From a virus (lineage: Duplodnaviria > Heunggongvirae > Uroviricota > Caudoviricetes), in the IMG/VR virus record IMGVR_UViG_3300006201_000009: a DNA stretch of 64,000 nt, one strand, 5' to 3'. The first letter of the stretch is position 1. Every line of letters starts with the position of its first letter. A program made the position numbers and the translations under genes. The notes beneath the pieces are model-generated. The model did no database searches, was not told the DNA's origin, and saw only the letters and a list, made by a program, of their open reading frames with translations. Positions 4,917-39,956 of this stretch are shown piece after piece.

Positions 4917-5150
4917 TTATGTGTCAGATTTACTACATTCGCTACAGATCATCTTTCCAAGTTCGGCGTCGCCAAGAGGAGCTCCGCAACAAACGCATAT
5001 TTCCGACATATTACGAAGCTCAAGTTTTTGCTGTTGCCGCAATTTATGGTTAAGCTGTCGTCTTGCTGTTCTTTTCAGCGATGGGGTAACGCTATCAAGG
5101 CGAGCGTCCCATCCGGCGTCTCTCGCAGTAATCTTCTTTGTGCTACGCAT
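4917..5150 (-). CDS. Small zinc-ribbon protein
   Basis: CVCCGAPLGDAELGKMICSECS; start ATGCGTAG overlaps stop of upstream gene (translational coupling). Confidence 0.4.
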   Translation of the reverse strand: MRSTKKITARDAGWDARLDSVTPSLKRTARRQLNHKLRQQQKLELRNMSEICVCCGAPLGDAELGKMICSECSKSDT

Positions 5151-6144
5151 TTGAAAGTTCCTCTCTGATTCGCATAAGAATTTTTCCGAGCTTGTTTTTG
5201 CCCTCACCGTTGCATACACCCCATTCTCTGTCGTTCCAATCGTTACCCTCGATGAGTTGTACGGAACCAGTGGAGAGTAGTTTTTCTTTTAGGTCAGGAT
5301 GTTGCATAAACTTAGCGCGGCAAACCTCGAGCATGATGTCTTCTTTGACTTGCTCCCAGTCGGAACGAAGTTGGACGTGTCGCCCAAGTTTCTTTGCCGC
5401 CGACGGGTCGAGGTCGCAAAACTCGCTTGCTCTTTCGGGACACTTCATTGCGTGGAACGCCGCTTCATTATTCTTAAATGTAAGACCGAAACAGGTAACG
5501 TCTCTTTCGTAGAAGTTGCTTAGGTAGTAATTGTTTCCTCTGAACTCTGTGATGTCATTCATAATTTGTTCTCCGTTTATCCTTAAAAGAATTTCTCGAA
5601 CAATCTCGTCATATCCTTTCACATCGCCTTCAATGGAGCGGTAGGGGATGTTTCTGTCTTTGAGGAGCGAGATAACCGATGCACCAAGTGCGTCTGACTC
5701 AGCTTCAGTCTGCTTACGCCCAACGGGATTGTACGGCTTAACTCTCAGCAAGAGGTAGTTAAGGTTGTCGTATGTGTTGAACACATCCATTACGGCTTTG
5801 TTAAAGTTTTCTGTAAGTCGTTCGTCGTTGTTGTACATTACACTTAAAGGAAGCGGGCTGTCGGTAACGATAACATCAACCTTACCGGCGCAGCGGCTTA
5901 TCCTATAAGATTGCTCTCCAAATATGTAGGCTTGGTTGCGGAACGCTTCATCGTTTCGTTCCCAAACTTTATCTTTTGCATATTCGGTTATAAGTTCTGC
6001 ATTGATGCCTGCCATTTTAATGCAGGAGAATATGTATGCGGCTCCCGTGCTTTTGCCTGCGCCAGGAACGCCAAATAGATTAACTACCAACGTATTAGCC
6101 ATTTCGTGTACTCCAAACTTTGATAGCTTCTTCGCGTGAGTCAT
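5143..6144 (-). CDS. P-loop NTPase/kinase fused to NADAR (YbiA-like ADP-ribose/N-glycosidase) domain
   Basis: Walker A FGVPGAGKST at N-terminus; C-terminal NADAR-like signature EGNDWNDREWGVCNGEGKNKLGKILMRIREEL. Confidence 0.55.
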   Translation of the reverse strand: MTHAKKLSKFGVHEMANTLVVNLFGVPGAGKSTGAAYIFSCIKMAGINAELITEYAKDKVWERNDEAFRNQAYIFGEQSYRISRCAGKVDVIVTDSPLPLSVMYNNDERLTENFNKAVMDVFNTYDNLNYLLLRVKPYNPVGRKQTEAESDALGASVISLLKDRNIPYRSIEGDVKGYDEIVREILLRINGEQIMNDITEFRGNNYYLSNFYERDVTCFGLTFKNNEAAFHAMKCPERASEFCDLDPSAAKKLGRHVQLRSDWEQVKEDIMLEVCRAKFMQHPDLKEKLLSTGSVQLIEGNDWNDREWGVCNGEGKNKLGKILMRIREELSNA

Positions 6145-6343
6145 AAATTAAACGACCTAATGGTTCATCTGGTTCTGTTGCGATAGGACAGTGAACACCG
6201 TCGGCTTCCTCGTGAACTAACATATAGCCTAAGCCGCTCCACGGATCGTCTTCGTATTCGTCTGGATGGATATTGCCTTCGTCATCACAGACTACAATTC
6301 TTACTTCTCTGCCGCAAAAGGGACAGGTTAACTTTTTGTCCAT
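6095..6343 (-). CDS. Lar-like restriction-alleviation family small protein (CPFCG zinc ribbon)
   Basis: LTCPFCGREV...HCP; 82 aa; resemblance to Lar family is from memory. Confidence 0.3.
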   Translation of the reverse strand: MDKKLTCPFCGREVRIVVCDDEGNIHPDEYEDDPWSGLGYMLVHEEADGVHCPIATEPDEPLGRLIYDSREEAIKVWSTRNG

Positions 6344-6385
6344 ATTTTCACCTCAATAAAATATCAGTTTTATTCAGACTTTTAA

Positions 6386-6472
6386 TTAAAATCTTGGCGG
6401 TCTGTTGTCGCCATCTATGTATAGCAGGGCAAGCAAAGCCCCGCACATAAGACCTAACATAAAGTAAAGCAT
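6386..6472 (-). CDS. Possible 28-aa hydrophobic peptide (MLYFMLGLMCGALLALLYIDGDNRPPRF)
   Basis: ATG preceded by GGAGA RBS and by the GTGTCTAAATATG motif (variant); below the ORF-track size cutoff. Confidence 0.25.
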   Translation of the reverse strand: MLYFMLGLMCGALLALLYIDGDNRPPRF

Positions 6473-6735
6473 AATTCTCTCCGTTGTGTCTAAATATGTC
6501 GTATAATATTTATATTTATTACCGCACAAATGGCGGCACTTATCCTATTATGTGTCTAAATATGTTTTATAATACCATATGTAAAGGAAATTGTCAAGAG
6601 ATTTTCGGCAATTTCCTAAAAAATTTTTTACATTTTCGCCACTTTCAATTACGTTTTCAAAAGCGATAGTTTTTACCTTGCCTTTAATGCTCATTTATTA
6701 TATAATGTATATACAAATTTCAAATGAGGTGCCCT

Positions 6736-6927
6736 ATGACAGAGTTAAAACTAAATGAATTCCTTGACCGTGCCGACGATTTTATAAATAATGCGTCAAT
6801 GGGGGAGGATTTCTATTCCGTTAAAACCAATTCAGGCAAGGCTATAATTATAAGCGAAGACGAGTGGAAGATAATGACCGATGCAATGAGAGTTGCAATG
6901 GGATGCAAGCCTCAAAATTGCGATTGA
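6736..6927 (+). CDS. Phd/YefM-like antitoxin-fold protein (orphan; possible small regulator)
   Basis: LKLNEFLDRADDFINNASMGEDFYSVKTNSGKAIIISEDEWKIMTD resembles YefM/Phd N-terminus; GAGGTG RBS; only plus-strand gene in a promoter-rich intergenic region; no toxin downstream. Confidence 0.4.
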   Translation: MTELKLNEFLDRADDFINNASMGEDFYSVKTNSGKAIIISEDEWKIMTDAMRVAMGCKPQNCD

Positions 6928-7650
6928 TTATTTGTAGAGCCAAGGATAGCGTTTTTTATTTTCCTCGTATTGCTTAATGCGCATATCGGATTGCTGCCAA
7001 GGTGACTCTTGCCTATTCCAACTATAATTTACCTTCTCTTCGTCTAACGCTCTTATAGTTAGCAAGTTGCATATACGCAAAATTAAACGAGCCGGTTCTG
7101 TTGCAAACAAATTAGATGCACGTCCATAATTATCATATTTATATACGATATCATCTATTGTTATTGAGGCGTTCGGTTCACCAAAGAATAGTTCGGGTCT
7201 ATCAATATACGGTGGCTGCCAAGGATAATACCATATTAAATCATGCAATCCCAATTGTTGTTGGGCTGGTTGCTGATTGCCTAAAATTTTTGCAAAGGCA
7301 CAATCATCTTCATAGTTTTCGGCAATTGATTTACAAGCTTCTTTATATAGGCGCGAATGTTTTTGTAGCGCAGATATCTTTTCGCTTTCCGATCTCGTAT
7401 CAGGGATATCGTATTTAACAAATAGAGACTCAATAGTTTCCATTATTGAGTTGCCGTCTACTGTCATCGATTGACTAATCTCTTCTAAGTCAGACATGAC
7501 TTTGGAAAAGTTATTACACCAAAGTTCATCCTGGCGCTTTACGTTCGTTATTGTTTTTTCTCTATATGTGCGCTTGTCTTCTTTTTTCTTTGCGGAGTCA
7601 AAGAACCACACAACCAAGAAGACTATGAGCACGACAAGTGCTAATGTCAT
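6928..7650 (-). CDS. Membrane-anchored hypothetical protein
   Basis: N-terminal TM helix MTLALVVLIVFLVVWFF. Confidence 0.35.
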   Translation of the reverse strand: MTLALVVLIVFLVVWFFDSAKKKEDKRTYREKTITNVKRQDELWCNNFSKVMSDLEEISQSMTVDGNSIMETIESLFVKYDIPDTRSESEKISALQKHSRLYKEACKSIAENYEDDCAFAKILGNQQPAQQQLGLHDLIWYYPWQPPYIDRPELFFGEPNASITIDDIVYKYDNYGRASNLFATEPARLILRICNLLTIRALDEEKVNYSWNRQESPWQQSDMRIKQYEENKKRYPWLYK

Positions 7651-7739
7651 ATTAAATTCTCCTTTTGCTGTGCGGAGACTGTGTCCACCGCCAACGCATT
7701 TCCATTATATCATAATGGAGATAAGTAGTCAAGAGCCTG

Positions 7740-8065
7740 TGAGAAGGGTAAAAGTTCTCTATGTCCACCATTTGTCCACGCCGCCTAAGTAACAGTAGGT
7801 GAGCGTGGATGTTTTTTAATGTTAATATATGATTTAGTGTCGCTAATTGCGGCACTTTTTTTCTGTTGTGAGTGTCTAAATATGTTGCGTAGTGAAACCT
7901 AATCTTTTTGTTGAGTAAAACAAATTTATTAGGAAACACTTTCACTTATTTTCGCTAAATTCACAAGATATAGTTAAAACGGCATAGATAAACACAATAT
8001 ATAGTGTGGCATTGTCCACGCTTTTTCTTTTTGTCCACGTATTGTCCACTGGTTGTAGAGCGGGT
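7740..8065. promoter_or_regulatory. Cluster of TTGTCCAC direct repeats plus one inverted copy (GGTGGACAAAAA); candidate integrase arm-type/attP or operator sites
   Basis: ttgtccacgcc (7771), attgtccacgc (8010), ttgtccacgt (8031), attgtccactgg (8040), gggtggacaaaaa (8062). Confidence 0.35.
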
Positions 8066-8074
8066 GGACAAAAA

Positions 8075-8515
8075 TCATTTGTAAAGCTGGTACTTTTTGC
8101 TGATGAGATGAGCAATATCATCAGGGAGTGGACGAAAACCTATACAAGTGAGTGTTCTGCCGATGCCATTCTCATCAATTTCTTCTGGTTCAAGCTCGGT
8201 AAGACAACTGTCTTTAATGAGAAAGAAATCTTTGCCCTCAATCAGACCAAGTTCGTTTGCCATAGTAACAGCTTTCATAAGTTGGTTGCGGTTCTTTGCC
8301 TCGCAAATTGTTTTCGTGAAAATACCGCAAATCCATTCCTTGTACACGTCGGTATCTATGTCCGCTTTGTACGTGATTCCGCCTGTTCCAACCCATTGGC
8401 AATTTCCGTTGCGCATTGGGCTTGTGATAAATGCCATAGAGGCGTGGCAGCATTGCGCTGCCAACTTACCCGCTGACATATTCAAATCCTTTCTTGCAAT
8501 TATTAACTGTCTCAT
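8075..8515 (-). CDS. PTH2-family peptidyl-tRNA hydrolase-like protein
   Basis: MRQLIIARKDLNMSAGKLAAQCCHASMAF matches the PTH2 N-terminal signature (K..vR.DL.M..GK.aAQ..HA). Confidence 0.5.
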   Translation of the reverse strand: MRQLIIARKDLNMSAGKLAAQCCHASMAFITSPMRNGNCQWVGTGGITYKADIDTDVYKEWICGIFTKTICEAKNRNQLMKAVTMANELGLIEGKDFFLIKDSCLTELEPEEIDENGIGRTLTCIGFRPLPDDIAHLISKKYQLYK

Positions 8516-8525
8516 CTTTGTTCCT

Positions 8526-9824
8526 TTATGCCGCGGGCGGTGTTGCCATTATCTCTTCAAAGGCGTCAGCGGCTTCTTGTTGCATATGCTCTGTGGCTTT
8601 AACGTAGGTCTGGAGCGTCGTAACGATGCTTCTATGACCAAGTCTCTGCTGTACTGCTTTCGGGCTTACACCGTTCTCTATAAGGAGCGTAGCGTGCGAA
8701 TGACGAAGCGAGTGGAAGTCAAAAGGTGTTTCTATTAGTCCCTGAATGACGCGAGTCGCATACTTGAACGTGTCTGTTGTAGAGAAGATTCCATTCTCTT
8801 CAACGCATACGAAGTTAATATGAGGTTGAACCGTTTCAATACATTTTTGTACCGGCACAATTCTCGTAATCTCATTACCTTTCTCGTCAATCTCATTTAC
8901 TGCCACATAGGTGGTGTAATATTCTCTATAGAGTTGCTCGTTACTTTCTTGGCGTTGCTTTTCTTGGCGGAGAATATCTATAAGGTGGTCTCCAATCTTT
9001 ATCACTCTACACGAGTCATATTTTGGAGGAGCAAAATACCAAGCAGATTTCTCGTTGTTTCTGCGGTAGCGCAATGAAGTCTTTTCTTCCAAACCATAGT
9101 TGCGCTTAATGATCTGTTTGTCAACGTTCAAGGTTTTATTTTCAAAGTCAATGTCTTCCCACGTAACAGCGAACGCCTCTGATATTCTCAATCCGCAGTA
9201 CCACCCAAAGAGAAGGGGGATGTGGAAGCGGTTTCCAAAAGGGAACCGTTGCATTATTTTTTCAAATTCTTCGCGACTTATTACTTGCCTTGCACGTTTT
9301 CGCTTGCCATTAGTAGGGAACTTGATATAAGTGATAGGGTTGTCTCGAATATATTTCAAGGGAAATACTGCGTAATCAAGAGCAACCTTTAAGGTGGAAA
9401 GTATCCCAAAAACATAAGAAATGGAATATCCTTTCTTGCTTAATTCGTTTGCATAGTCTTGCAATACGGAAGGGTTCAAACTTTTAAGTTTGTACATTCC
9501 TATGTGTGGTTTAATGTGTTTCTTGATAAGGTTTTGATATGTCACGAGCGTATTATATTTTAAGTTTGTAACGCAATACTGTTCATACCAATAATCAAGG
9601 TAATCATTAACACCAATCTCGGAGGGTTCAAAGTGAAGTCCTGCCGTATTATACTCCGACATCGCCAAAGCACCTGCTTCCAAGGCTTCTTTTTTTGTTT
9701 TGAACCCAGCCTTGGATATGTGCTTTCTTTTGCCATCAACCCGAGCTGCCTCAAATCGGTATTCCCAGTTTGGTTTCTTGTCGGGCTTGTTTCTGTTCCT
9801 GTCTCTTACGTTAATTTTTGCCAT
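8526..9824 (-). CDS. int: Tyrosine integrase (phage integrase family)
   Basis: C-terminal catalytic region HSLRHSHATLLIENGVSPKAVQQRLGHRSIVTTLQTYVKATE (H-x-x-R ... Y); LRISEAFAVTWEDI (R box); adjacent excisionase. Confidence 0.75.
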   Translation of the reverse strand: MAKINVRDRNRNKPDKKPNWEYRFEAARVDGKRKHISKAGFKTKKEALEAGALAMSEYNTAGLHFEPSEIGVNDYLDYWYEQYCVTNLKYNTLVTYQNLIKKHIKPHIGMYKLKSLNPSVLQDYANELSKKGYSISYVFGILSTLKVALDYAVFPLKYIRDNPITYIKFPTNGKRKRARQVISREEFEKIMQRFPFGNRFHIPLLFGWYCGLRISEAFAVTWEDIDFENKTLNVDKQIIKRNYGLEEKTSLRYRRNNEKSAWYFAPPKYDSCRVIKIGDHLIDILRQEKQRQESNEQLYREYYTTYVAVNEIDEKGNEITRIVPVQKCIETVQPHINFVCVEENGIFSTTDTFKYATRVIQGLIETPFDFHSLRHSHATLLIENGVSPKAVQQRLGHRSIVTTLQTYVKATEHMQQEAADAFEEIMATPPAA

Positions 9825-10020
9825 CGTCGAGCTCCTTAATATTGGTAGGCTCTGTTAAGTCTTTTCCTTCATACTTTTGCAGGAAGATTTCCAAAGACTC
9901 TTTCCTAACCTTGAAGGAGCCGAGCTTGATGAATGGCAATAATTTCGCTTTTCTGAGTTTGTGGACGTAATCCACATTTGTCTTTAAGATTGCCGCTACT
10001 TCAGCTACTGTAAATAACAT
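9811..10020 (-). CDS. xis: Excisionase/HTH_17 (AlpA/Xis-like) DNA-binding protein
   Basis: MLFTVAEVAAILKTNVDYVHKLRKAKLLPFIKLG winged-HTH pattern; TAGGAGA RBS before internal ATG; overlaps int start. Confidence 0.55.
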   Translation of the reverse strand: MLFTVAEVAAILKTNVDYVHKLRKAKLLPFIKLGSFKVRKESLEIFLQKYEGKDLTEPTNIKELDDGKN

Positions 10021-10158
10021 ATTGTCTCCTATATTGATTTTATTATGTATAGGCTGAGTAGCGCAACGGTCGTCATCAAATTTCATCTTATTAACCTCTC
10101 GATATTTAATGACCTTTTAATCCGTTTAATCCTCGCCGCATATGGCGGCGCAATTATT

Positions 10159-10404
10159 TTATTTTGTTACGGGGAAGACGTGGTAGAAATCTACGCGCCT
10201 TTTGTTGATGTACGCATAGCTGTCTTTGCCCGTTATAACTTTGAGTTTTCTCTTGCGTGTGTTCCAAATTTCTGTAAAGGCGGAAACCGTAAGAGGTGTT
10301 CCAACGCCGATCTGTGCGCCGTTTTTCATAATGAATACGACATTTGTTATGGGCTCGAATGATACGTCGTCCAAGTTTACGTTCAGTTCTTCAAGTGATG
10401 CCAT
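10159..10404 (-). CDS. Hypothetical protein
   Basis: ORF preceded by AGGAG RBS and GTGTCTAAATATG-family motif. Confidence 0.35.
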   Translation of the reverse strand: MASLEELNVNLDDVSFEPITNVVFIMKNGAQIGVGTPLTVSAFTEIWNTRKRKLKVITGKDSYAYINKRRVDFYHVFPVTK

Positions 10405-10462
10405 GTAATCTCCTATATGTCTAAATATGTTTTATAATCGTTAAAAATATAAGACCGTAATC

Positions 10463-11374
10463 TTATATTTCGTTGTTTTCAAGTGTCTTAACAAACTCTA
10501 CGTATTGATCGCGGTAGTTAAAGGCATAGTTTAGTGTACAACCCATTATTGACGTAATTTTATTGATAAGGCTTTGCTCACTTTTATCGTTATAGATTTC
10601 AAGGAATAAAGCATTCTTGTGCAAATTACGGAAGATAATCGATGTCTTCATTGAGCGAGGGACGCTCATATTAAACCGCTTAATTATTTGGATTATTTGC
10701 CCGCCGTCGAGTTTCTCACAATTCGCATCGGTCGGTCTAAACAGGTAATCATCATTGCCCTTTAAGATTACCTTTCTGCCCGACGGTAAACCTTTATAAG
10801 ACTCTAAATCTGATAAGTAGTATATTGCCGCGAATGGCTGTCCGTAAATCTCAAATGAGCCTCCTCTACCAGAAATCTTATAACCATCAAGTCCGATAGG
10901 GGTGAGGTCTCGAACAGTAAGGTTTGCTATGTCTTCGGGTGTAAACCCAAGCCAGCCCAATACACACACCGCCTTAACTCTTACAAGGTCTTGTGTGGGG
11001 TTGTAACCTGTCAATACTTCATCGCCAACAGCATCTATAAATGACAGAAGTTCGTTGATGCCTCTAAAATAGCAAACGCTTTCCTGAGAAGCAATTACTT
11101 CATCGCGGCTCGGCACTTCGGAGTTGACGCCCACATACTCAAAAACGTTAAGCAAATACTCTTTGATTTTTTGATAGTGCGGACGAGATATGCTGTTACC
11201 CGCTTTTTGTACATAAAAAGCGTTGCATAATAGTTGCTTGCTTTTCAATGCCTCGGCGATTGGCGTGTTACCAACCAACTCGCTAAGATTGTCAAGGAAT
11301 CTAATAACGTCGCTTTTGCGTGAAGCGTTCGCGGAAGGGTAATACCTTTCCACAAATTCTTGTTGGTTTATCAT
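10463..11374 (-). CDS. Hypothetical protein (possible degenerate integrase-like fold)
   Basis: Driven by perfect sigma70 promoter TTGACT-17-TATAAT at ~11385-11415 (minus); weak R/K/Y-like spacing only. Confidence 0.3.
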   Translation of the reverse strand: MINQQEFVERYYPSANASRKSDVIRFLDNLSELVGNTPIAEALKSKQLLCNAFYVQKAGNSISRPHYQKIKEYLLNVFEYVGVNSEVPSRDEVIASQESVCYFRGINELLSFIDAVGDEVLTGYNPTQDLVRVKAVCVLGWLGFTPEDIANLTVRDLTPIGLDGYKISGRGGSFEIYGQPFAAIYYLSDLESYKGLPSGRKVILKGNDDYLFRPTDANCEKLDGGQIIQIIKRFNMSVPRSMKTSIIFRNLHKNALFLEIYNDKSEQSLINKITSIMGCTLNYAFNYRDQYVEFVKTLENNEI

Positions 11375-11384
11375 TGTCTTATAC

Positions 11385-11416
11385 CTCCATTTTATTATAC
11401 AACATTATTAGACATA
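11385..11416 (-). promoter_or_regulatory. Consensus sigma70 promoter (TTGACTTATGTCTAATAATGTTGTATAAT) for gene 10463-11374
   Basis: Reverse complement of plus sequence gives TTGACT, 17-nt spacer, TATAAT, then GGAGG and ATG. Confidence 0.6.
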
Positions 11417-11480
11417 AGTCAATGCCGTATAAGTTAAATTTTATGTATAAGATAGGAAAAATGGGGGAAGTTTGTCAGGC

Positions 11481-12062
11481 TTACTTTTTGTTCTCTAAAT
11501 TGCTTCCGTTAAAGATATTTGTAAACAATTCTGCCATCGCCGCCTTGAATGTGTTGTCATCGAAAGGATATTCCTTTTTCAATGTTTTTGCGTCTGCTTT
11601 GTTCGGCGCAACATTGGGTGTGGGCGACTTTTCTTTTGTCTTAACCATTGACAGCAAAGGATTGAAAAGTGAGAGGAGGAGTGCATATTTTTCTTCAACG
11701 CTCATCCTTACGTCGAACTCAATTTCATCGCCTATGCCGCCAATAAATTCGTCATACTGCTCGTCCATTTCGTCAGACGCCTCGGCTATTGCGCAAATAT
11801 GTATATCGTGCTTTGTAAACTTCACAAGGAAGCTGACTGACTGAACGTCAAAAGGGAGGTTGAGTGGATGTCCACATTCCTCGAAGTCGTACTGGAATGT
11901 TACGACTTTTTCATCCGCATCGGCGTGTAGCGTCATAATAAGGTTGGGGTCAAATACAGCATCGTCGCATACAAGCTGCTTGCCCTTTGAGTTTCTGTTT
12001 GTACTGAAAAGTTTCATCTCTGATGTTCTCCTAATTTGATAATTTTTTTTCGAGTTGGTCAA
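11481..12062 (-). CDS. Hypothetical protein
   Basis: ORF only. Confidence 0.3.
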   Translation of the reverse strand: MTNSKKNYQIRRTSEMKLFSTNRNSKGKQLVCDDAVFDPNLIMTLHADADEKVVTFQYDFEECGHPLNLPFDVQSVSFLVKFTKHDIHICAIAEASDEMDEQYDEFIGGIGDEIEFDVRMSVEEKYALLLSLFNPLLSMVKTKEKSPTPNVAPNKADAKTLKKEYPFDDNTFKAAMAELFTNIFNGSNLENKK

Positions 12063-13050
12063 TCTTTGAAACTATATCATCGATTGTATAGTTATTGCCT
12101 GCTACGATTTCGTGTATGTCAGTCTTTCCCAGAACGAACTCGCTCACGGACTCACGGGCTTTGTCAAACATCTGTTGATAAGTGCCCAGATATCTCATAG
12201 TGACGCGCTGGTCGCTATGGTTCAAAAGCCCTTGGATTTTCGTGATTGCGTTCATGTCGATACTTGACTTATCTACACAAGCAGCAATGTTGGCGAAGCT
12301 TTTACGCATTGTGTGTGAGCCTATTATAATTGGTAGGTTCAAAGCTTTGCCGGCGTCGGACAAAATCTTCCACCCATATTCCTCAAACATTTTGCCCTTC
12401 GTCTTATTACTTTTGAAGAGGTAATCGTCTAACTCGAAGTCCCAATTTATTGAGTCAAATAACTTCGTCGCCGCGTCTTTGACTGATTGGGTTATCAGGC
12501 AATTATTTATCTTCAAAGTTTTTTGTTCGACGATATACATTCTTTGACGAAATGTTCTATCGTCATTGAGCAAGTAACTTATCTTTAGCGATAGTAAGTC
12601 CGAGATACGCAATCCAAGGCTTACTCCGATTGTCCACAACGCCCAATCACGTATTTTGCCTTGCTCCAAAAAATAATTTTGGATTGACGCAAAGTCTTCA
12701 TATGAACGTATCGGGTCTGCCGGACGTGGTTTCCTTTTGCCGTCGGACTTAAATTCAGAGAATACTATGGGTTCCGCGGCTTCCATTTCGGCTTTTGTTC
12801 GACGCTTACGACGTGGTTTATTTTCAAGCTCGCAAATTTGCCGTTGTAGTTTATCTACGCGATCTTCTGCATCACGTCTCATGATACGTTCAACCGCAAG
12901 CTCTTCAACGAGCTGTTTGTTTTCCAGTTCAAGGCGATCTGCTCTTTCTGCGTCTGTTTCAAATGCCCTTGGAACGGGAAAGTTTAATACAACTGAGTCG
13001 CGGCTACAATCAGTTCGCATCGTCATCTCCCTCCATATATATTTTTTCAA
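12031..13050 (-). CDS. Tyrosine recombinase (second copy) with N-terminal coiled-coil
   Basis: GVSLGLRISDLL (R), GSHTMRKSFA (H-x-x-R), VTMRYLGTY (Y); N-terminal heptad-like region. Confidence 0.55.
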   Translation of the reverse strand: MKKYIWREMTMRTDCSRDSVVLNFPVPRAFETDAERADRLELENKQLVEELAVERIMRRDAEDRVDKLQRQICELENKPRRKRRTKAEMEAAEPIVFSEFKSDGKRKPRPADPIRSYEDFASIQNYFLEQGKIRDWALWTIGVSLGLRISDLLSLKISYLLNDDRTFRQRMYIVEQKTLKINNCLITQSVKDAATKLFDSINWDFELDDYLFKSNKTKGKMFEEYGWKILSDAGKALNLPIIIGSHTMRKSFANIAACVDKSSIDMNAITKIQGLLNHSDQRVTMRYLGTYQQMFDKARESVSEFVLGKTDIHEIVAGNNYTIDDIVSKIDQLEKKLSN

Positions 13051-13208: not shown

Positions 13209-13550
13209 TTAAACTCCTATACCGATAGAAATCATAAGTTTTCTGTTAATGTCGTCAATTTTACTTCTATTAACAACTTCGCCCAACTTTTTCTTAAGTC
13301 TCGTTTTGTCTACAACTCTGACCTGCTCACATAACACCGTAGAAACTTTAAGTATTCCTGCATCGCTTGGCGTCAGCGTAACGTGAGTTTCTATCGGTGT
13401 TTTATCTTGAGATGTGAGAGGGCAAATGATAGTAGTAGGGGAATGTTGGTTCCCTTGTTCATTCTGTACTATCAAAGCGGGGCGAATACCGGTTTGTTCC
13501 GAGCCTACCTGATTACTTAAATCGACTAAATATATTTCGCCTCGGTGCAT
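13209..13550 (-). CDS. mazF: MazF/PemK-family endoribonuclease toxin
   Basis: GEIYLVDLSNQVGSEQTGIRPALIVQNE...IICPLTSQ...VLCEQVRVVDKTRL is collinear with the MazF/PemK consensus. Confidence 0.65.
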   Translation of the reverse strand: MHRGEIYLVDLSNQVGSEQTGIRPALIVQNEQGNQHSPTTIICPLTSQDKTPIETHVTLTPSDAGILKVSTVLCEQVRVVDKTRLKKKLGEVVNRSKIDDINRKLMISIGIGV

Positions 13551-13564
13551 AATTGATACCGCCT

Positions 13565-13789
13565 CTAAATTTCTTCCAAGGTACTTGCCGCCTGTCGAAT
13601 GTCAGAGATTGCATCTTCTATTTTATCACTACAGTCTTCCGATGTACAATAAGCGTCGCCCCCTTGCAAATTTTCGGGTGTGTTCTCTCTTGCGTAGTCT
13701 TCGTCAAACTTTATATCGTCAAGCTCATCGGCACACCCATTGATTGTAGCTATGACTTTGTTAATTCGTTTTCTTCTCTCTCTGTTCAC
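13565..13789 (-). CDS. Putative cognate antitoxin of MazF (acidic, no recognisable MazE/AbrB fold)
   Basis: Immediately upstream (14-nt gap) and co-oriented with the mazF-like gene; 74 aa, acidic. Confidence 0.35.
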   Translation of the reverse strand: MNRERRKRINKVIATINGCADELDDIKFDEDYARENTPENLQGGDAYCTSEDCSDKIEDAISDIRQAASTLEEI

Positions 13790-13802: not shown

Positions 13803-15014
13803 TTATATATTGTGTTTAAGTAAGAATTGATTGCTGATACACTTAAAGCTAATTTTGTTGTCGTGGTCTCGTATAACAACGCCTTCTCTAAGCGTATCGC
13901 ACAATGTGGACTTTCCGTCAGCATAAGCAATCATTTCATCGACAGTGGGGAGCAGCTTAAAGTTCGCGTTAATAATCGGAACCCACTTGATTCCAAAGTC
14001 GTGCATCACATCTGTTGCGACTGCGCTGTCCATTTTTACCCCGTCGATTACAAGGTTGAAGGCATAGAAATCAATTCCCTTGAGACCGTATTTATTTTTT
14101 TGAATTGCCTCGCCAATGGTTTCGCCCTGAAGAACGACAGTAGTTGCTTTATATTTTTCAAGTATCTGCATAAGCACGTTGCGGATGTCGTACTTATTGG
14201 CGATTTGGTGGTACACATTGTCGTCGTAGAAACACTTTTGGTTGATGTCGGCTTGGCGCACGTTCCGTGAACACACCGCGAAGTCATATTTTCTTTTCTT
14301 TTCTTTTCTCAACCCAAAGCTCGTAGAGGTGCCGTCCAGCTTTTCAGTGACGACCATTGGCTTGTCCTTGTATGTATCGAGAACGAAAGGCATATTTTGC
14401 AAACGTGTTTCGTCCGTTTTAACGATCCAGTCGGGGAAGTTTTTCGGTTTCTTTTTCGGTGCGAGAAGTTTATAAACGGTTTTTCTAAACCACTTGAACT
14501 TCATAAACCATAAAAATACTTTATTTTTGAAGAGTTTTTTGTGGCGTTGCTTAATTGCCGCCGCGGGGTCTTTGACCTGTTGCTTGGGAACATCATCTTC
14601 GACCTGTTTAATCTTAAGGATGTCGGTAACATCGTCACCGATGCCGTGTGTTTTTTCGTCATGGAGAACAGAGAGGGGGAAGATGATGCCTTGAGATATG
14701 ACGCCGCGCATTTTCATTGTCTTAATTTTATAATGTTTAGACTCAAGAAACGCGAAGTCAGGATTGTCGGAAGGCATAATGCTGTCAATTTCAACGTAGA
14801 TTGCAAGATCGCCAACCTTAAATTCATTCTTTTTTACGATACACTGCCAGCCGAGTATGCCGGCGAGCTCGATTTTGTCAGCTCCTTCGATGGGGCGGAG
14901 CCATGCAATTTGTTCGATGTGAGCAAGTTTTCTCATAATACACTCCAAATTATTTTTTGTGTTTGGAACGAAGCCATTGAATATGTTTTTTAATGCTGTC
15001 TTGACGACTGTCAT
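13803..15014 (-). CDS. ATP-dependent RNA ligase with N-terminal OB-like domain (Rnl5/DraRnl/NgrRnl-like)
   Basis: Nucleotidyltransferase motif I KLDGTS (VVTEKLDGTSTSF); N-terminal MRKLAHIEQIAWLRPIEGADKIELAGILGWQCIVKKNEFKVGDLAIYVEIDS resembles N-terminal domain of this Rnl class. Confidence 0.55.
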   Translation of the reverse strand: MTVVKTALKNIFNGFVPNTKNNLECIMRKLAHIEQIAWLRPIEGADKIELAGILGWQCIVKKNEFKVGDLAIYVEIDSIMPSDNPDFAFLESKHYKIKTMKMRGVISQGIIFPLSVLHDEKTHGIGDDVTDILKIKQVEDDVPKQQVKDPAAAIKQRHKKLFKNKVFLWFMKFKWFRKTVYKLLAPKKKPKNFPDWIVKTDETRLQNMPFVLDTYKDKPMVVTEKLDGTSTSFGLRKEKKRKYDFAVCSRNVRQADINQKCFYDDNVYHQIANKYDIRNVLMQILEKYKATTVVLQGETIGEAIQKNKYGLKGIDFYAFNLVIDGVKMDSAVATDVMHDFGIKWVPIINANFKLLPTVDEMIAYADGKSTLCDTLREGVVIRDHDNKISFKCISNQFLLKHNI

Positions 15015-20656: not shown

Positions 20657-20677
20657 TGTGTTTCTCCGTTATATGTC

Positions 20678-21891: not shown

Positions 21892-21968
21892 TGGTCGGAG
21901 CGACAGGATTTGAACCTGCGACCTTATGATCCCAAATCATACGCACTACCAAACTGTGCTACGCCCCG
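21892..21968 (-). tRNA. tRNA-Pro (anticodon UGG), CCA encoded
   Basis: Acceptor CGGGGCG/CGCTCCG, D arm GCACAGTTTGGTAGTGC, loop TTTGGGA, T loop GGTTCAAATCC, CCA. Confidence 0.7.
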
Positions 21969-22097
21969 ATGGCGGGTTAACGTGACCCGAACGGCATATC
22001 CCATAATTTAGCGCCGAAATGTGGTGCAACATTGTACTTCTGTTACATAATCCAACATTTCATTTAGGGCTATGGAAATCATTTGCTCTAACCCTCG

Positions 22098-22174
22098 TTG
22101 GTCGGAGTGAGAGGACTCGAACCCCCAAATTGCTGATCCTAAGTCAGCCGCCTATGCCAATTCGGCTACACTCC
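22098..22174 (-). tRNA. tRNA, type I, anticodon-loop CTTAGGA (anticodon UAG; Leu-like anticodon but no long variable arm)
   Basis: Acceptor CGGAGTG/CACTCCG + CCA; T loop TTCGAGT; D loop AATTGGCATA shared with two neighbours. Confidence 0.5.
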
Positions 22175-22177
22175 GTT

Positions 22178-22254
22178 GTGGTGGGAGAAGAGAGACTTGA
22201 ACTCTCAGAACCCAGTGTTTGAGGCTGGTACGTATGCCAATTCCGTCATTCTCC
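22178..22254 (-). tRNA. tRNA, type I, anticodon loop CTCAAAC (anticodon CAA?)
   Basis: Acceptor GGGAGAA/TTCTCCC + CCA; T loop GTTCAAGTC; D loop AATTGGCATA. Confidence 0.45.
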
Positions 22255-22359
22255 CGCGTCCTGCACCTAAGCATTGCTTATATACATCCGCAAGTTCTCG
22301 TTAAGCTATTCCTTGTTTCAGCTATTCCCAATACCCTTAACGTGGCTGGGAGGTGCAAG

Positions 22360-22436
22360 TGGTCAGGACGGTGGGAGTTGAACCCACAAAACACGGGGTT
22401 TAAGCCCGATGTCTATGCCAATTCGACTACGTCCTG
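22360..22436 (-). tRNA. tRNA, type I, anticodon loop CTTAAAC (anticodon UAA?)
   Basis: Acceptor CAGGACG/CGTCCTG + CCA; T loop GGTTCAACTCC; D loop AATTGGCATA. Confidence 0.45.
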
Positions 22437-22602
22437 ATAAAGCTCTTTCCAATTCGCCCAAGATTTCTCTTGCTCACGAGCAGATGAGTAGGTCGGTGAT
22501 GTTACCTGACGTTTCTTGGTTGTGATGTTATGTGCAATCATCACAAGCGCCGGTGCTTCTGGAAAGAGTTGTTATGTCGTTCTTGCACTGAACGGACATA
22601 AG

Positions 22603-22677
22603 TGGAGCGGGTAGCGAGAATTGAACTCGCACCTTCTGCTTGGAAGGCAGACGTCGTAGCCTTTTGACTATGCCCGC
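22603..22677 (-). tRNA. tRNA-Gly (UCC)
   Basis: Acceptor GCGGGCA; anticodon stem TCTGC/GCAGA, loop CTTCCAA; T loop GTTCAATTC; CCA. Confidence 0.65.
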
Positions 22678-23037
22678 AAAAAAAACTAATGGTGTGCTGT
22701 TACGCTAAAGACTCCAAGGGCACATATAGCATTGCCAGCGAACAGGGACTTAGCATATTCCACTGGGTTAAGTCGCAGAGTTTTCCTTTCTTTGCAACCT
22801 TACTATATTACACACTACTTACAGCTCTCGAACATCATAGATATCAGACCCTCGGGCGTATTTCAACGCCGTCCAAACTGCACTATATTGATGCCGTACC
22901 ACTTTCGTTTCCCTGAGGTGAAGATGTGTAGTGTAAGTTCACATCACATCGTTTCTTGTATGCCCGTGTACTTTGTCATACTTCCTCTCGTCACTCTTTA
23001 GATGGTGGCTGCTTCTAAGCCCACATTCCATTAGTGA

Positions 23038-23120
23038 TGGTGGGAGAGGTTGGACTCGAACCAACGAAGCCGAAACGCCTGATTTACAGTCAGGTGCAAT
23101 TGCCGCTATGCGACTCTCCC
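23038..23120 (-). tRNA. tRNA-Tyr (GUA), type II with long variable arm
   Basis: Acceptor GGGAGAG/CTCTCCC, anticodon stem CCTGA/TCAGG loop CTGTAAA, variable arm ~13 nt, T loop GGTTCGAGTCC, CCA. Confidence 0.65.
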
Positions 23121-23166
23121 ATGTAGTAAGAGCATCCTACCTAAACATTGAACGAACCGCCCCAGG

Positions 23167-23200
23167 TGGACGGTGTTGGAGTCGAACCAACATCTCTCTT
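23167..23200 (-). other. tRNA 3'-half-like remnant (T arm + acceptor 3' strand + CCA) immediately after tRNA-Lys
   Basis: Minus strand reads ...GTTGGTTCGACTCCAACACCGTCCA with no 5' half. Confidence 0.4.
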
Positions 23201-23276
23201 TGGTACCCGCGGTGAGAATCGAACTCACGACCCTTTGATTAAAAGTCAAATGCTCTACCGACTGAGCTACGCGGAT
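23201..23276 (-). tRNA. tRNA-Lys (UUU)
   Basis: GCGTAGCTCAGTCGGTAGAGCA D arm; anticodon stem TTTGA/TCAAA loop CTTTTAA; T loop GTTCGATTC; CCA. Confidence 0.65.
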
Positions 23277-23550
23277 AAAAAACAAGACACACCGAGACCT
23301 TCTATGTACATAAAGTAGCCAAAAATGGCAGAGGGCAACCAACGTAACACCTATATCCGCTCCCAGTTGCTTTTGCGGAGGAGTATGCTATTTAAGCATA
23401 AATCATTTAGCTTTGCTAAAAGTCATCTAACAACGGTTAGAACGTGGAAAACTCGCCAGCGAGCAGTCCTCAACTATACTGTTAATCTTCGTAAAGTTGC
23501 TGTGTGTGTCTTTAATAATGCGATGTTAAAAGGAGTGTACTTAATCGCAT

Positions 23551-23624
23551 TGGCAGGGACGGATGGGCTCGAACCATCACTGCGGGAGTCAAAGTCCCGT
23601 GCGCTACCGTTACGCTACGTCCCT
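23551..23624 (-). tRNA. tRNA-Gln (UUG)
   Basis: Acceptor AGGGACG/CGTCCCT; anticodon stem CGGGA/TCCCG loop CTTTGAC; T loop GGTTCGAGCCC; CCA. Confidence 0.6.
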
Positions 23625-23898
23625 ATAAAGGCTTTAAGGTCAGCCAACCGCACATACTTAACCCGAAAAATACTCAGGGTTGGATATTTGCTCCCCGAAG
23701 GTTTTACTCGATACTCAAACACACAAAGGGAATTTTCACTCGTCTCGTGAAATTCGTTATCGAATCGGATTTTCATGAGCTCGCGTAGTGAGCTTCTAAA
23801 AATCTGATTTGATGGAAGGGCGTTGTGATACATTTGCTATAAGCAAGTGCCTAACAGTATGTATAAAAGTTAGCATTGCTGTTTGAGTATCGGAGTAG

Positions 23899-23978
23899 TG
23901 GTGGAGCTGTTGGGATTTGAACCCAAGTCCTACGAATTCACTTTGGTTTTAATCGTAGTCGAAACCTTTCTCAGCCCC
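23899..23978 (-). ncRNA. tRNA-like RNA with canonical acceptor stem, T arm and CCA but aberrant D/anticodon region
   Basis: GGGGCTG...TTGGGTTCAAATCCCAA CAGCTCC A CCA; central part folds as an 5-bp stem (TACGA/TCGTA) with a 17-nt loop rather than a cloverleaf. Confidence 0.4.
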
Positions 23979-23979
23979 A

Positions 23980-24055
23980 TGGTTGGCAAGGATGGAATCG
24001 AACCATCGGCAACTGGTTTATAAGACCAGCCCCATCACCACTTGGGTACTTGCCA
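23980..24055 (-). tRNA. tRNA with anticodon UAU (Ile-like, AUA-decoding)
   Basis: Acceptor TGGCAAG/CTTGCCA, U8A9, D stem CCCA/TGGG loop AGTGGTGA, anticodon stem CTGGT/ACCAG loop CTTATAA, T loop TTCGATT, A73, CCA. Confidence 0.6.
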
Positions 24056-24060
24056 ATATG

Positions 24061-24136
24061 TGGAGCTGGATGTCGGACTTGAACCGACAACCTATCGCTT
24101 ACAAGGCGATTGCTCTGCCAATTGAGCTAATCCAGC
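24061..24136 (-). tRNA. tRNA-Thr (UGU)
   Basis: GCTGGATTAGCTCAATTGGCAGAGC; anticodon stem ATCGC/GCGAT loop CTTGTAA; T loop GGTTCAAGTCC; CCA. Confidence 0.65.
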
Positions 24137-24138
24137 GT

Positions 24139-24216
24139 TGGTCACCGCAGAGGGGGTCGAACCCTCAAACTCCACCGTGAAAGGGTGGTGACTTTAGCCA
24201 TTTTGTCTATGCGGCG
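24139..24216 (-). tRNA. tRNA-Glu (UUC)
   Basis: Anticodon stem CCACC/GGTGG loop CTTTCAC; T loop GGTTCGACCCC; CCA; acceptor with one G-U. Confidence 0.55.
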
Positions 24217-24368
24217 ATAAAAATATATAGGCTGTTCCTCAAACTCCATTTAACGTATCGTTATTTTCCGGCGCCCCAGTCAATAACTTTATCCATCCTT
24301 TCCCCGTTTCAATGCGGGTGTCTGCTTTACACTTCACTTCGCGGTTAGTACGGCACCTATATATTTTT

Positions 24369-24515
24369 TGGTGACTCGAACAGGAATTGAACCTGTACAT
24401 CTATCCCGTTTCTCGGCTACATACTGCAATGCAGGGATGTCGCGAACATCGCCGTAACCTACGCTTTAAGGCTTACTGTTCCCTCAGGGGTGTTCTATCA
24501 TTGAACTATCGAGCC
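24369..24515 (-). ncRNA. 147-nt tRNA-like RNA: canonical acceptor, U8A9, D arm, T arm and CCA, with ~70 extra nt replacing/inside the anticodon-variable region
   Basis: 5' GGCTCGA-TA-GTTC-AATGATA-GAAC ... 3' ACAGG-TTCAATT-CCTGT-TCGAGTC-A-CCA; 7-bp acceptor pairing (one G-U); internal small hairpins (CCCTGAGGG, GCGATGTTCGC, CTGCATTGCAG). Confidence 0.45.
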
Positions 24516-24518
24516 AAA

Positions 24519-24608
24519 TGGCGGAGGGTGTAGGACTCGAACCTACGCTCCGAATGAACGGAGAACGGCTTAGCAAGCCGCGGCAGTACCAACTATGCTT
24601 AACCCTCC
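24519..24608 (-). tRNA. tRNA-Ser (GCU), type II
   Basis: Acceptor GGAGGGT/ACCCTCC; anticodon stem GCGGC/GCCGT loop TTGCTAA; variable arm CTCCG-TTCATT-CGGAG; T loop GGTTCGAGTCC; CCA. Confidence 0.65.
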
Positions 24609-24622
24609 AAGCGGGAGCATCG

Positions 24623-24886
24623 CTACTCCCAATATGGATATATTTCAGCATCCGACACGTCTCCGTGAGACCATTTTACTGCCTTTCCGGCGTGAACAAT
24701 GGGCTCATCTTCTTTGTCATCGAATGATTGTTGTACCTTTTGCGTTGCGGCTTCTTCATTTTTTGCAAACACAACTCGTTGTCCATATATTCTGCCGCCG
24801 TCAAAGTAGGTTCCAGAGTAGGGAACTGTGAATTTCTTTAATCCTTTAATCATAAAACACCTATTCTGTATTGAAATTTTCGCCAT
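24623..24886 (-). CDS. Hypothetical protein
   Basis: ORF only. Confidence 0.3.
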   Translation of the reverse strand: MAKISIQNRCFMIKGLKKFTVPYSGTYFDGGRIYGQRVVFAKNEEAATQKVQQSFDDKEDEPIVHAGKAVKWSHGDVSDAEIYPYWE

Positions 24887-25133
24887 TCGCAGATATAAAG
24901 GTTGTAACAGCTTTTGCTATGTCATTTTTTTCACCTTTGATAACGAGAGTAAGTTCAGTTTGATACGATTGCTTGCACTTAACTATTGCTATATTAAATC
25001 GCGAATGATTTCGTATGAACCATTCCAGTGCGTGACGAACAGGGACATACAGGTATTCGCCAAATGAACACGTGCGGTCATATTTATGCACGGAATTTAT
25101 GTGAAGCACTTTCTTTCTTTTCATATTGACCAC
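24861..25133 (-). CDS. Hypothetical protein
   Basis: ORF only. Confidence 0.3.
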   Translation of the reverse strand: MVNMKRKKVLHINSVHKYDRTCSFGEYLYVPVRHALEWFIRNHSRFNIAIVKCKQSYQTELTLVIKGEKNDIAKAVTTFISANGENFNTE

Positions 25134-25156
25134 CTTTTTTGAATAAAAGAGTACTT

Positions 25157-25378
25157 TTATTTAAGGTTACGCAAGATTGTTTTCTTGTCTATGTCACACA
25201 TCTCGCAAAGTTCATCAAACCAGTCAGACGAAAAGAATTTTTTCAGCTCTTTCATATTGAAGTCCTTGCATTCCGTGGCTTGTCCGTTCCGTAATGCTCG
25301 GAAATCTGAGATTGCTTGTAGCAATACTGCGGCAATCAATCTGCGAATGGTTGTTTGATCAACATACTGTGTGCTCAT
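25157..25378 (-). CDS. Hypothetical protein
   Basis: ORF only. Confidence 0.3.
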   Translation of the reverse strand: MSTQYVDQTTIRRLIAAVLLQAISDFRALRNGQATECKDFNMKELKKFFSSDWFDELCEMCDIDKKTILRNLK

Positions 25379-25402
25379 ATTTATGTATCCTTATAAATTT
25401 TT

Positions 25403-25491
25403 TGGCGGAAGCGGTGAGATTTGAACTCACGAACCCTTGCGGATTGCCAGTTTTCAAGACTGGTGCAATAAACCAAGCTCTGCCACACTTC
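25403..25491 (-). tRNA. tRNA-Ser (UGA), type II
   Basis: Acceptor GGAAGTG/CGCTTCC; anticodon stem CCAGT/ACTGG loop CTTGAAA; long variable arm; T loop GGTTCAAATCTC; CCA. Confidence 0.6.
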
Positions 25492-25502
25492 CATAGTAGG
25501 GT

Positions 25503-25974
25503 TTAACCCCACACGACGGCGCATAAACTTGCAAGTCGCGCTCTATATTCAAAGTCTTTCGGTAAAAAATTGCCGTACAAGAGCTTCATTTCCGAAATCA
25601 AAGCCTCTTCGCTTTCATAAGCTTGCTCAAACAGCGACGCATACCTCGGTAAACACATCAAAACCCAATCATCGTTCTCAACATCAACACCTATTTCGTT
25701 AATGTCTTTGATAAGAGGGGTAAAATCACCGTAAATATCGTTTCCGTATGACCATTTGTGACAGATTACACCTTGTTCCCAATTTTCTTTGAGATAATAT
25801 TGGCTATCGTCGCAAATGTATTGTCTAATGGCGTCGTATATATCTTCGCCTTCGTCGGGTTCAAGCTCAATGCCGTCTTTTTCTTTAATATATTCGCGGA
25901 ATTTTTCCACGTCGATTTCCTGAATTTTGACCGCAAGCCCTTTATCGCTCACGGCATAGCTGTGTGTACTCATA
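25503..25974 (-). CDS. Hypothetical acidic protein
   Basis: AAGGAG RBS before MSTHSY start; longer ORF-track version overlaps tRNA-Trp and is rejected. Confidence 0.4.
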
Positions 25975-25988
25975 ATTGCTCCTTTTTT

Positions 25989-26062
25989 TGGCAAGGGTGG
26001 GGCGAATTGAACGCCCATCAATGGTTTTGGAGACCACCGTCCTACCATTAAACGACACCCTT
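25989..26062 (-). tRNA. tRNA-Trp (CCA)
   Basis: A1-U72 acceptor AAGGGTG/CACCCTT; anticodon stem GTGGT/ACCAT loop CTCCAAA; T loop GCGTTCAATTCGC; CCA. Confidence 0.6.
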
Positions 26063-28146: not shown

Positions 28147-28156
28147 TGATTGCCTC

Positions 28157-39711: not shown

Positions 39712-39831
39712 AGTTACCTCCAATGAATTAAAATATGAGATTTTAACTCCAAGACGGGATTCAAAAAGAGATTTCAAGTCCTTGTTTTGTAACGTTGCTG
39801 TTACCGTCTTTGAGTTGATGGTACGAAAGAA

Positions 39832-39950: not shown

Positions 39951-39956
39951 AAATGA

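Follow-up and report, generated by a model that had tools for sequence, protein, structure and literature searches.

A PTH2-family peptidyl-tRNA hydrolase gene lies between the integrase and the probable attP of a temperate Clostridia phage

Results

The PTH2 locus

We analysed a 64,000-nt stretch of viral DNA (IMG/VR virus record IMGVR_UViG_3300006201_000009; hereafter the window) that is a temperate phage of gut Clostridia. An earlier note, made from the sequence alone, had proposed that this phage encodes a PTH2-like peptidyl-tRNA hydrolase. The gene in question is a minus-strand open reading frame (ORF) of 146 codons that runs from ATG to TGA and occupies exactly positions 8075-8515. It is the terminal cargo gene between the integrase gene (int) and the attachment site (attP) of the phage, and we propose, with moderate confidence, that its product is a Pth2-type esterase that frees tRNA and belongs to the phage's tRNA-maintenance genes.

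The PTH2 start codon follows the int stop codon after 10 nt, and a Shine-Dalgarno-like sequence spans the junction (Table 1). Because this ribosome-binding site overlaps the int stop, co-transcription with int is implied, with independent initiation of translation. No promoter-like site was seen on the minus strand between int and PTH2. Directly past the PTH2 stop codon begins a series of GTGGACA/TGTCCAC heptamers, which occur 17 times in the window compared to 4.7 expected by chance; 7 of them lie within 7682-8070. The arm repeats are convincing, and the layout is probably that of an attP with arm-type integrase sites. Since phage genes go on beyond attP, the window represents the non-integrated form of the phage. 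Locally, nothing is more distinctive than this terminal cargo position of PTH2 between int and attP, which the earlier note had overlooked.

Table 1. Positions of the PTH2 gene, its flanking elements and the putative tRNA-repair genes in the window
Feature	Position	Strand	Remarks
PTH2-family peptidyl-tRNA hydrolase coding sequence	8075..8515	-	146 aa; stop codon 8075-8077
Shine-Dalgarno-like AAGGAA	8521..8526	-	5 nt upstream of PTH2 ATG; overlaps last base of integrase stop
Tyrosine integrase, 432 aa, Arm-DNA-bind_4, SAM-like and catalytic domains	8526..9824	-	directly upstream of PTH2
HTH_17 protein, excisionase-like	9811..10086	-	overlaps integrase start; kept in L009 and L014
Probable attP	7682..8070		7 GTGGACA/TGTCCAC heptamers (arm-type sites) in clusters 8013-8070 and 7682-7779, ~230-bp core between
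RNA ligase (PHA02142 OB domain and RNA_ligase)	13803..15014	-	putative tRNA-repair gene; syntenic with PTH2 in L009
tRNA array, 14 tRNA genes and a tmRNA-like domain	21892..26062	-	tRNA gene calls
Two metallophosphoesterases	26067-27346	-	adjoin tRNA array
P-loop kinase (AAA_33/KTI12), weak C-terminal HD-domain match	28803-29813	-	near tRNA array

Family assignment and predicted fold

Profile, predicted fold and putative active-site residues fully support a Pth2-type rather than a bacterial Pth1-type assignment. A Pfam search, the check suggested in the earlier note, matched the ORF to the whole PF01981 (PTH2) profile, positions 1-115 of 115, with E = 3.2e-20 and a score of 72.9 bits (gathering cutoff, 23 bits), and the 146-aa protein also matched PHROG 1866, a family of unknown function. 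When the sequence was searched against the PDB, all 7 matches were Pth2/Bit1 chains (1rlk, 1xty, 24bt, 1wn2, 1rzw, 1q7s and 2zv3), with 1rlk and 1xty scoring best (E ~2e-7). The strongest local match covered the N-terminal 30 residues, RQLIIARKDLNMSAGKLAAQCCHAS, where the note had recognised an archaeal/eukaryotic-type rather than a bacterial signature, a reading that these searches bear out. Bacterial Pth1 gave no match to the protein in Pfam or NCBIfam scans.

An AlphaFold2 model, built on 20 homologues, was compared with known and predicted structures. Foldseek returned 14 significant PDB matches, all of them Pth2/Bit1 (E 6e-7 to 9e-4; target TM 0.52-0.73), and the next match after these had E = 0.5. 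Among predicted viral structures (BFVD), the model matched phage, giant-virus and poxvirus proteins named peptidyl-tRNA hydrolase. The PTH2 fold on which the proposal hinged was therefore found both by profile, over its full length, and by structure comparison, where every significant PDB match was a Pth2.

Active site, clade-specific features and selection

In a HMMER alignment, Lys17, Asp102 and Thr106 of the phage protein align with Lys18, Asp86 and Thr90 of Sulfolobus solfataricus Pth2 (1xty). Lys18 and Asp86 of the Sulfolobus enzyme are reportedly essential by mutagenesis, and the assignment of Lys17 and Asp102 as probable catalytic residues draws on those findings together with their conservation. 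Both are 100% conserved in 119 close relatives. A broader alignment took in relatives of 33-45% identity, the Pth2 of jumbo phage XacN1 and gp80 of mycobacteriophage Sandalphon; there, Asp102 is invariant, while Lys17 and Thr106, the latter part of a conserved D-x-x-x-T motif, are at least 90% conserved.

Around these residues the protein departs from the canonical pattern. Its motif reads D-S-C-L-T-E instead of D-x-G-x-T-Q, so that Asp and Thr are kept while Cys stands in place of Gly and Glu in place of Gln. All members of the query's clade have Cys104, whereas jumbo-phage and mycobacteriophage Pth2 proteins retain Gly at this position. An insertion of ~9 residues (PEEVDENGVGR) after the T-E-L motif, at residues ~110-120, is near-invariant in the clade. 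The loop at residues 32-57, after helix 1, is hypervariable, with a column entropy of 2-3.6 bits compared to <0.3 bits at most positions outside it (119 relatives). Among more distant cluster representatives this segment ranges from ~20 to ~80 residues, with indel differences.

Codon analysis (NG86) of relatives gave a ratio of nonsynonymous to synonymous substitution rates (dN/dS) of ~0.03-0.05 for the core and of ~0.5 at most, never >1, for the loop (0.1-0.5 in the Faecalibacterium set), with dS saturated in several of the pairs. These values point to strong functional constraint on the protein, and purifying selection of this strength on the core means that PTH2 is clearly useful. Because it is the PTH2 frame that is under such selection, the overlapping plus-strand ORFs are not the gene. 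Positive selection on the loop was considered and rejected: a dN/dS of no more than ~0.5 describes a fast or relaxed segment and does not demonstrate diversifying selection. Loop hypervariability driven by a diversity-generating retroelement (DGR) was likewise dismissed, as 8331-8440 has no second copy within the window and the loops of relatives differ by indels.

The invariant Cys104 in place of the Gly of D-x-G-x-T, the near-invariant insertion and a loop that varies in both sequence and length could be read as marks of a neofunctionalised Pth2-fold hydrolase, in which these three elements would confer specificity for another substrate or site. Candidate targets include peptidyl-tRNA on the split 50S subunit (release of the RQC type), peptide-bearing fragments of cleaved tRNA, or another ester adduct at an RNA 3' end. 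Scores below the archaeal Pth2 equivalog cutoffs agree with such a shift, as does the proposal by Iyer et al. (PMC7824862) that the substrates of phage PTH2 are cleaved peptidyl-tRNAs at jammed ribosomes. However, the overall fold and the residues aligned with the catalytic Lys and Asp are canonical, the loop dN/dS is compatible with simple relaxed constraint, and no partner gene is consistently linked to PTH2. We regard neofunctionalisation as rather improbable.

Integrated relatives and distribution of the clade

The same arrangement is found in integrated prophages. In L009, a 225-kb bacterial contig, the gene order is that of the window: GP88, SPFH, RNA ligase, MazF, integrase, a 304-aa protein, HTH_17, integrase and PTH2. 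Past PTH2, this contig carries GTGGACA repeats and then host genes. The repeats adjoin a TRAM/uracil-5 methyltransferase gene at its 3' end, and the other host genes are those for a class Ib aminoacyl-tRNA synthetase and for threonine synthase. This integrated relative confirms the layout of attP with a terminal PTH2; window positions 7933-8049 and the L009 junction share only 69% similarity over 120 nt. In prophages L013 and L017, a tRNA-Pro gene, a typical attB, lies on the opposite strand 340 bp past PTH2. PTH2 is the last phage gene beside host DNA in all three of these related prophages, and the IMG/VR prophage contigs L073, L075 and L077 start exactly at the PTH2 gene. The int-PTH2 pair is also present in L009 and in L001-L004, which are 90% identical relatives where the pair is followed by an IS110 element.

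Two further observations concern these flanks. Between PTH2 and the att repeats of L009 (8480-8860) are two copies of a ~70-nt unit, each combining a hairpin with a short opposite-strand reading frame of very basic composition (...KGTIRIRR...). The accessory region that holds int-PTH2 in close relatives also carries ToxN, Fic/RelB, HipA/HTH and IS110 (L001 7576-8094 and 15577-17661; L006 15383-15955).

At E <= 1e-3, a word-indexed search for homologues of the protein returned 4,169 cluster representatives. The best 120 of these are 68-99% identical to the query and all carry PF01981 (120/120); some already bear the name 'PTH2 family peptidyl-tRNA hydrolase' in JGI or NCBI annotation. When 50%-identity representatives were searched exhaustively, 730 passed the same threshold. 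Sampled at one genome per species, the clade is represented in Christensenella, Butyrivibrio, Lachnospiraceae, Lawsonibacter and others, and in at least 13 species-level genomes of Faecalibacterium. It is a very large clade that resides in Clostridia phages and prophages of gut and rumen.

The position next to attP makes PTH2 a candidate lysogenic-conversion gene in abundant gut commensals, one that would be expressed from the prophage and would benefit the lysogen through tolerance of translation stress or of macrolide- or lincosamide-induced drop-off, or through interference with superinfection. Lysogens often express genes that lie at prophage ends, and overproduction of Pth lowers macrolide sensitivity in E. 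coli. The terminal place of PTH2 between int and att in the window, L009, L013 and L017, the three prophage contigs that begin exactly at the gene, an integrase within 6 kb in 15/66 loci and the abundance of the clade in gut and rumen Clostridia genomes, including those of Faecalibacterium, all agree with this role. Against it, no promoter of its own was detected, and PTH2 is apparently transcribed with int, a gene that stable lysogens normally keep silent. Homologues elsewhere are buried in phage tRNA arrays or clusters of early genes, away from prophage ends, and PADLOC gave no match for the PTH2 protein at E <= 1e-3. On balance we consider lysogenic conversion unlikely to be its role.

Gene neighbourhoods of PTH2 homologues

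Homologues of PTH2 occupy variable, mobile-element-like contexts with integrases (<=6 kb from PTH2 in 15 of 66 loci), Fic, ToxN, HipA, MqsA-like and restriction-modification genes. Recurrent neighbours are an RNA ligase (5 loci), a Thg1-like 3'-5' polymerase (5 loci) and a metallophosphatase (4 loci). Two Lachnospiraceae-type contigs from metagenome-assembled genomes (MAGs) place a PTH2 homologue directly among tRNA genes, within a 34-tRNA array in L049 (5145-10933) and between the two blocks of a 25-tRNA array in L022 (8622-20160). Arrays of 4-10 tRNAs lie within 10 kb of PTH2 in 6 more of 58 loci.

Some neighbourhoods have features of their own. A Thg1-like tRNA-His guanylyltransferase/3'-5' polymerase lies beside PTH2 or within 2 kb downstream of it in Butyrivibrio loci (L012 11898-12653; L046 10439-10876). 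About 300 bp upstream of the homologues in L078 (4918-4991) and L079 (9647-9720) is a tRNA with a CTA anticodon, an amber suppressor that ARAGORN labels 'Pyl'; these two IMG/VR contigs, one of 172 kb, may come from phages with TAG recoding. The PTH2-containing operon in L057 encodes proteins whose Pfam matches are mostly DUFs. An apparent neighbour family found at 19 loci was discarded, as it proved to be the ORF antisense to PTH2 in high-GC Faecalibacterium DNA, a spurious product of greedy ORF calling.

Other genes of the phage

The window encodes a primase-helicase (54-1883), ERF and PD-(D/E)XK recombination genes and, on the plus strand from ~48.8 kb, structural genes that include portal and terminase-like genes and others. 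At the DNA level, megablast of window positions 6000-12000 against 50,697 phage records (INPHARED) gave no match. The nearest relatives come from gut and rumen Clostridia, and contig L011, from a Christensenella MAG, carries a primase-helicase fragment of 96% identity and a PTH2 of 72% identity.

The earlier note had described a phage with many tRNAs, and the array of 14 tRNA genes agrees with that description. Putative tRNA-repair genes accompany it (Table 1). The two metallophosphoesterases and the kinase-HD protein, which have two unannotated ORFs between them (26067-29813), are candidate RNA end-healing enzymes and, with the RNA ligase, would form a candidate heal-and-seal set.

Within the array, 23899-23978 (minus strand) is an 80-nt tRNA-like domain resembling that of transfer-messenger RNA (tmRNA), which ARAGORN did not call. 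Its Rfam tmRNA match scores 69.4 bits (gathering score 47), with the alignment confined to both ends of the model. An acceptor stem containing G3:U70, a T-arm and an encoded CCA are present and the mRNA-like part is missing; the domain could be a mini-tmRNA, a decoy for SmpB or AlaRS, or a gene remnant.

Putative RNA elements also accompany a 611-aa DUF2828/DUF7788 'RNA-binding protein' (phrog_850) at 38167-40073 (minus strand). Two tRNA-like Rfam matches of ~118 nt (39832-39950 and 39957-40073) lie on the 5' side of this protein, and the combination resembles a Ro60/Rsr-type protein with YrlA-like, tRNA-mimicking Y RNAs. A reverse transcriptase (RVT_1; 32475-33623, minus strand) is flanked on both sides by a hairpin-rich repeat of ~60 nt (32167-32237 and 33848-33918; 77% identical). 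A classical DGR template-repeat/variable-repeat pair was rejected for these repeats, since both copies are non-coding and their mismatches are not adenine-specific.

Several genes upstream of the xis-int pair are shared with prophages. A second tyrosine recombinase (339 aa; 12031-13050, minus strand) and a conserved 303-aa protein (10463-11374, minus strand) are both syntenic in L009. A MazF/PemK toxin of 113 aa (13209-13550), preceded by an acidic 74-aa ORF that is a possible antitoxin (13209-13789, minus strand), is kept with the RNA ligase and the second tyrosine recombinase in prophages L009 and L017. An SPFH protein is also among the accessory genes of the window. A cluster of NAD-salvage and ADP-ribose genes at 17151-21448 (minus strand) encodes NAD synthase (NadE), a Macro domain, NAMPT, a PRPP-synthetase-like and an isochorismatase/nicotinamidase-like protein, and an AAA_28-NADAR fusion lies separately at 5143-6144 (minus strand). 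The NAD-salvage and NADAR genes are typical counter-measures to NAD-depleting or ADP-ribosylating defences.

A genome of this kind raises a counter-defence role for PTH2, which the earlier note had framed as an antidote to TacT/AtaT-like toxins. Here host GNAT toxins of the TacT, AtaT or ItaT type, triggered by infection, would make N-acetyl-aminoacyl-tRNAs, which the enzyme would deacylate and so restore translation. N-acetylated aminoacyl-tRNA is a routine assay substrate for Pth2 enzymes. The genome is rich in counter-defence-type functions (NAD-salvage cluster, Macro, NADAR, RNA ligase), related phages carry ToxN, Fic and HipA nearby, and bacterial Pth1 reverses TacT-induced acetylation (PMC9241777). 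The host's own Pth1 would already supply the activity. In the loci examined, a limited sample, no GNAT toxin or DUF1778 antitoxin was present among annotated neighbours, and in the literature we found no report of GNAT tRNA-acetylating toxins as anti-phage effectors, of a phage Pth countering them or of any test of a phage Pth2. With PADLOC also giving no match, this part of the note drew no direct support, and we consider it improbable, the reversal of TacT by Pth1 being what keeps it under consideration.

The presence of MazF in the window, and of ToxN, HipA and Fic in the same accessory regions of relatives, brings up the opposite possibility, that PTH2 is itself a toxin that would deacylate aminoacyl-tRNA as a host shut-off or abortive-infection effector. 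The name of NCBIfam TIGR00283, 'aminoacyl-tRNA hydrolase', would suit such an activity, but Pth2 enzymes, as far as is known, require an N-blocked substrate. In the window, no small antitoxin-like ORF adjoins PTH2, as int ends 10 nt upstream and attP lies downstream, and a toxin-antitoxin pair was therefore rejected for want of a partner ORF. Homologues stand alone in very varied contexts, PADLOC again gave no match, and we judge a toxin to be very improbable.

Discussion

A proposed role in tRNA recycling

The role we favour, that of a Pth2-type esterase in tRNA recycling, builds on the family and fold of the protein, on the conservation of the two residues aligned with the catalytic pair, on purifying selection, and on where the gene lies and its links to tRNA arrays and RNA-repair genes. 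That the protein is active, which substrate it uses, when it is expressed and how it benefits the phage are inferred. The enzyme would cleave the ester bond between a tRNA and its N-blocked aminoacyl or peptidyl group and return the free tRNA to the pool. As an accessory gene of a temperate Clostridia phage, probably co-transcribed with int, PTH2 would be part of a set that keeps tRNA usable, together with the 14 tRNAs, the RNA ligase, the kinase-HD protein and the phosphoesterases; the hydrolase may keep the pool supplied by the array available. Translation may be disturbed during infection or induction, whether by host attack on tRNA or mRNA, by the phage's own MazF-type RNase, or by ribosome stalling and drop-off, and PTH2 would remove the peptidyl-tRNA that then builds up.

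The part of the earlier note that proposed recycling of trapped peptidyl-tRNA is in keeping with this context, as homologues lie in or beside tRNA arrays and RNA ligase, Thg1-like and phosphoesterase genes, and the window has its own RNA ligase, kinase-HD protein and metallophosphatases. The literature points the same way: the PTH2 of jumbo phages has been noted as a likely ribosome-rescue or tRNA-recycling factor (Iyer et al., PMC7824862), and PTH2 is a near-core gene of the tRNA arrays of cluster C mycobacteriophages (PMC5966550).

Several points weigh against tRNA recycling. PTH2 lies 13 kb from the tRNA array in the window, and 50/58 homologous loci have no tRNA array within 10 kb. Lysogenic-conversion genes expressed in the prophage also typically lie between int and attP, which would point to host benefit or defence over a role in the lytic cycle, and the essential host Pth1 is presumably already present. 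The protein scores below the cutoffs of both NCBIfam archaeal Pth2 equivalogs (60.2 bits against 126 for NF003314; 46.7 against 82 for TIGR00283) and so is a divergent PTH2 member rather than an ortholog-level equivalog of archaeal Pth2. The AlphaFold2 model is of moderate confidence (pLDDT 74, pTM 0.66; 1 good model among 5). With Gly replaced by Cys beside Asp102 and with two insertions, substrate or mechanism could differ, and our literature search found no experimental study of the activity of any phage Pth2.

Some of these points can be gathered into a more speculative proposal, which we think unlikely, that PTH2 is a specialised conflict protein. Cys104, the conserved extra hairpin and the fast-evolving, length-variable loop would then be adapted to a particular host attack on charged tRNA, and the gene would be delivered and expressed at the lysis-lysogeny decision or as a lysogen conversion factor. 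Such attacks could be acylation or other blocking of the tRNA 3' end, or cleavage of tRNA or mRNA that leaves peptidyl-tRNA behind on ribosomes that have stalled or split.

Arrays of phage tRNAs and RNA-repair enzymes are now viewed as answers to host defences that attack tRNA. Under the recycling role that we favour, a phage peptidyl-tRNA hydrolase would add to these an element that acts on the acyl end of tRNA and not on the anticodon loop. Virus-encoded Pth2 is already widely annotated, and the finding, while sound, is fairly ordinary; current concepts are unchanged because such proteins have been annotated in jumbo phages, mycobacteriophages and giant viruses. Annotated examples are XacN1, Xoo-sp13, Atu_ph07, RsoM2USA, Myrna, phiN3, CcrBL9, giant viruses and fowlpox, as well as RaK2 (PMC3622015). 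Specific to the present case are the int-PTH2-attP arrangement, the very large Clostridia-phage clade, the Gly-to-Cys replacement, the conserved insertion and the fast loop. The clade is extremely common in phages and prophages of gut and rumen Clostridia, among them Faecalibacterium, Christensenella and Lachnospiraceae.

Comparison with known Pth systems

Bacterial Pth1 presumably catalyses the same reaction on the same substrates as the phage protein, but its fold and sequence are unrelated, with a catalytic site of His, Asp and Asn, and the query has no similarity to it. The cellular proteins it does resemble are archaeal Pth2 (S. solfataricus, 1XTY; T. acidophilum Ta0108, 1RLK; A. fulgidus AF2095, 3ERJ; M. 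jannaschii MJ0051, 2ZV3) and human PTRH2/Bit1 (1Q7S). With these it shares the Pfam family, the alpha/beta fold (Foldseek E ~1e-6, target TM ~0.7) and the N-terminal motif R-x-D-L-x-M-x-x-G-K-x-A-A-Q-x-x-H-A. It is only 21-26% identical to them and is ~30 residues longer, owing to the insertion at 32-57 and the 9-residue insertion, and it has D-x-C-x-T-E where they have D-x-G-x-T-Q. Those proteins are products of cellular housekeeping genes, whereas the query is encoded by a bacterial virus. An archaeal Pth2 reportedly complements a pth(ts) strain of E. coli.

Closer counterparts are found in other phages. The Pth2 proteins of jumbo and large phages (XacN1, Xoo-sp13, Atu_ph07, RsoM2USA, RaK2 and phiN3) are likewise encoded in genomes with tRNA and RNA-repair genes (PMC7824862, PMC3622015). 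They are ~30-33% identical to the query, keep D-N-G and lack the second insertion. The jumbo phages are virulent and infect Proteobacteria, unlike the present temperate Clostridia phage, whose gene lies beside int and attP. In mycobacteriophages (cluster C, such as Myrna; Sandalphon gp80), a PTH2-like gene lies in or with tRNA arrays, accompanied by tmRNA and release-factor genes (PMC5966550). These proteins are ~31% identical to the query, shorter (~114 aa) and carry the canonical Gly, and they differ in host phylum and genome position; their association with tRNA arrays matches that seen in L049, L022 and the phage of the window.

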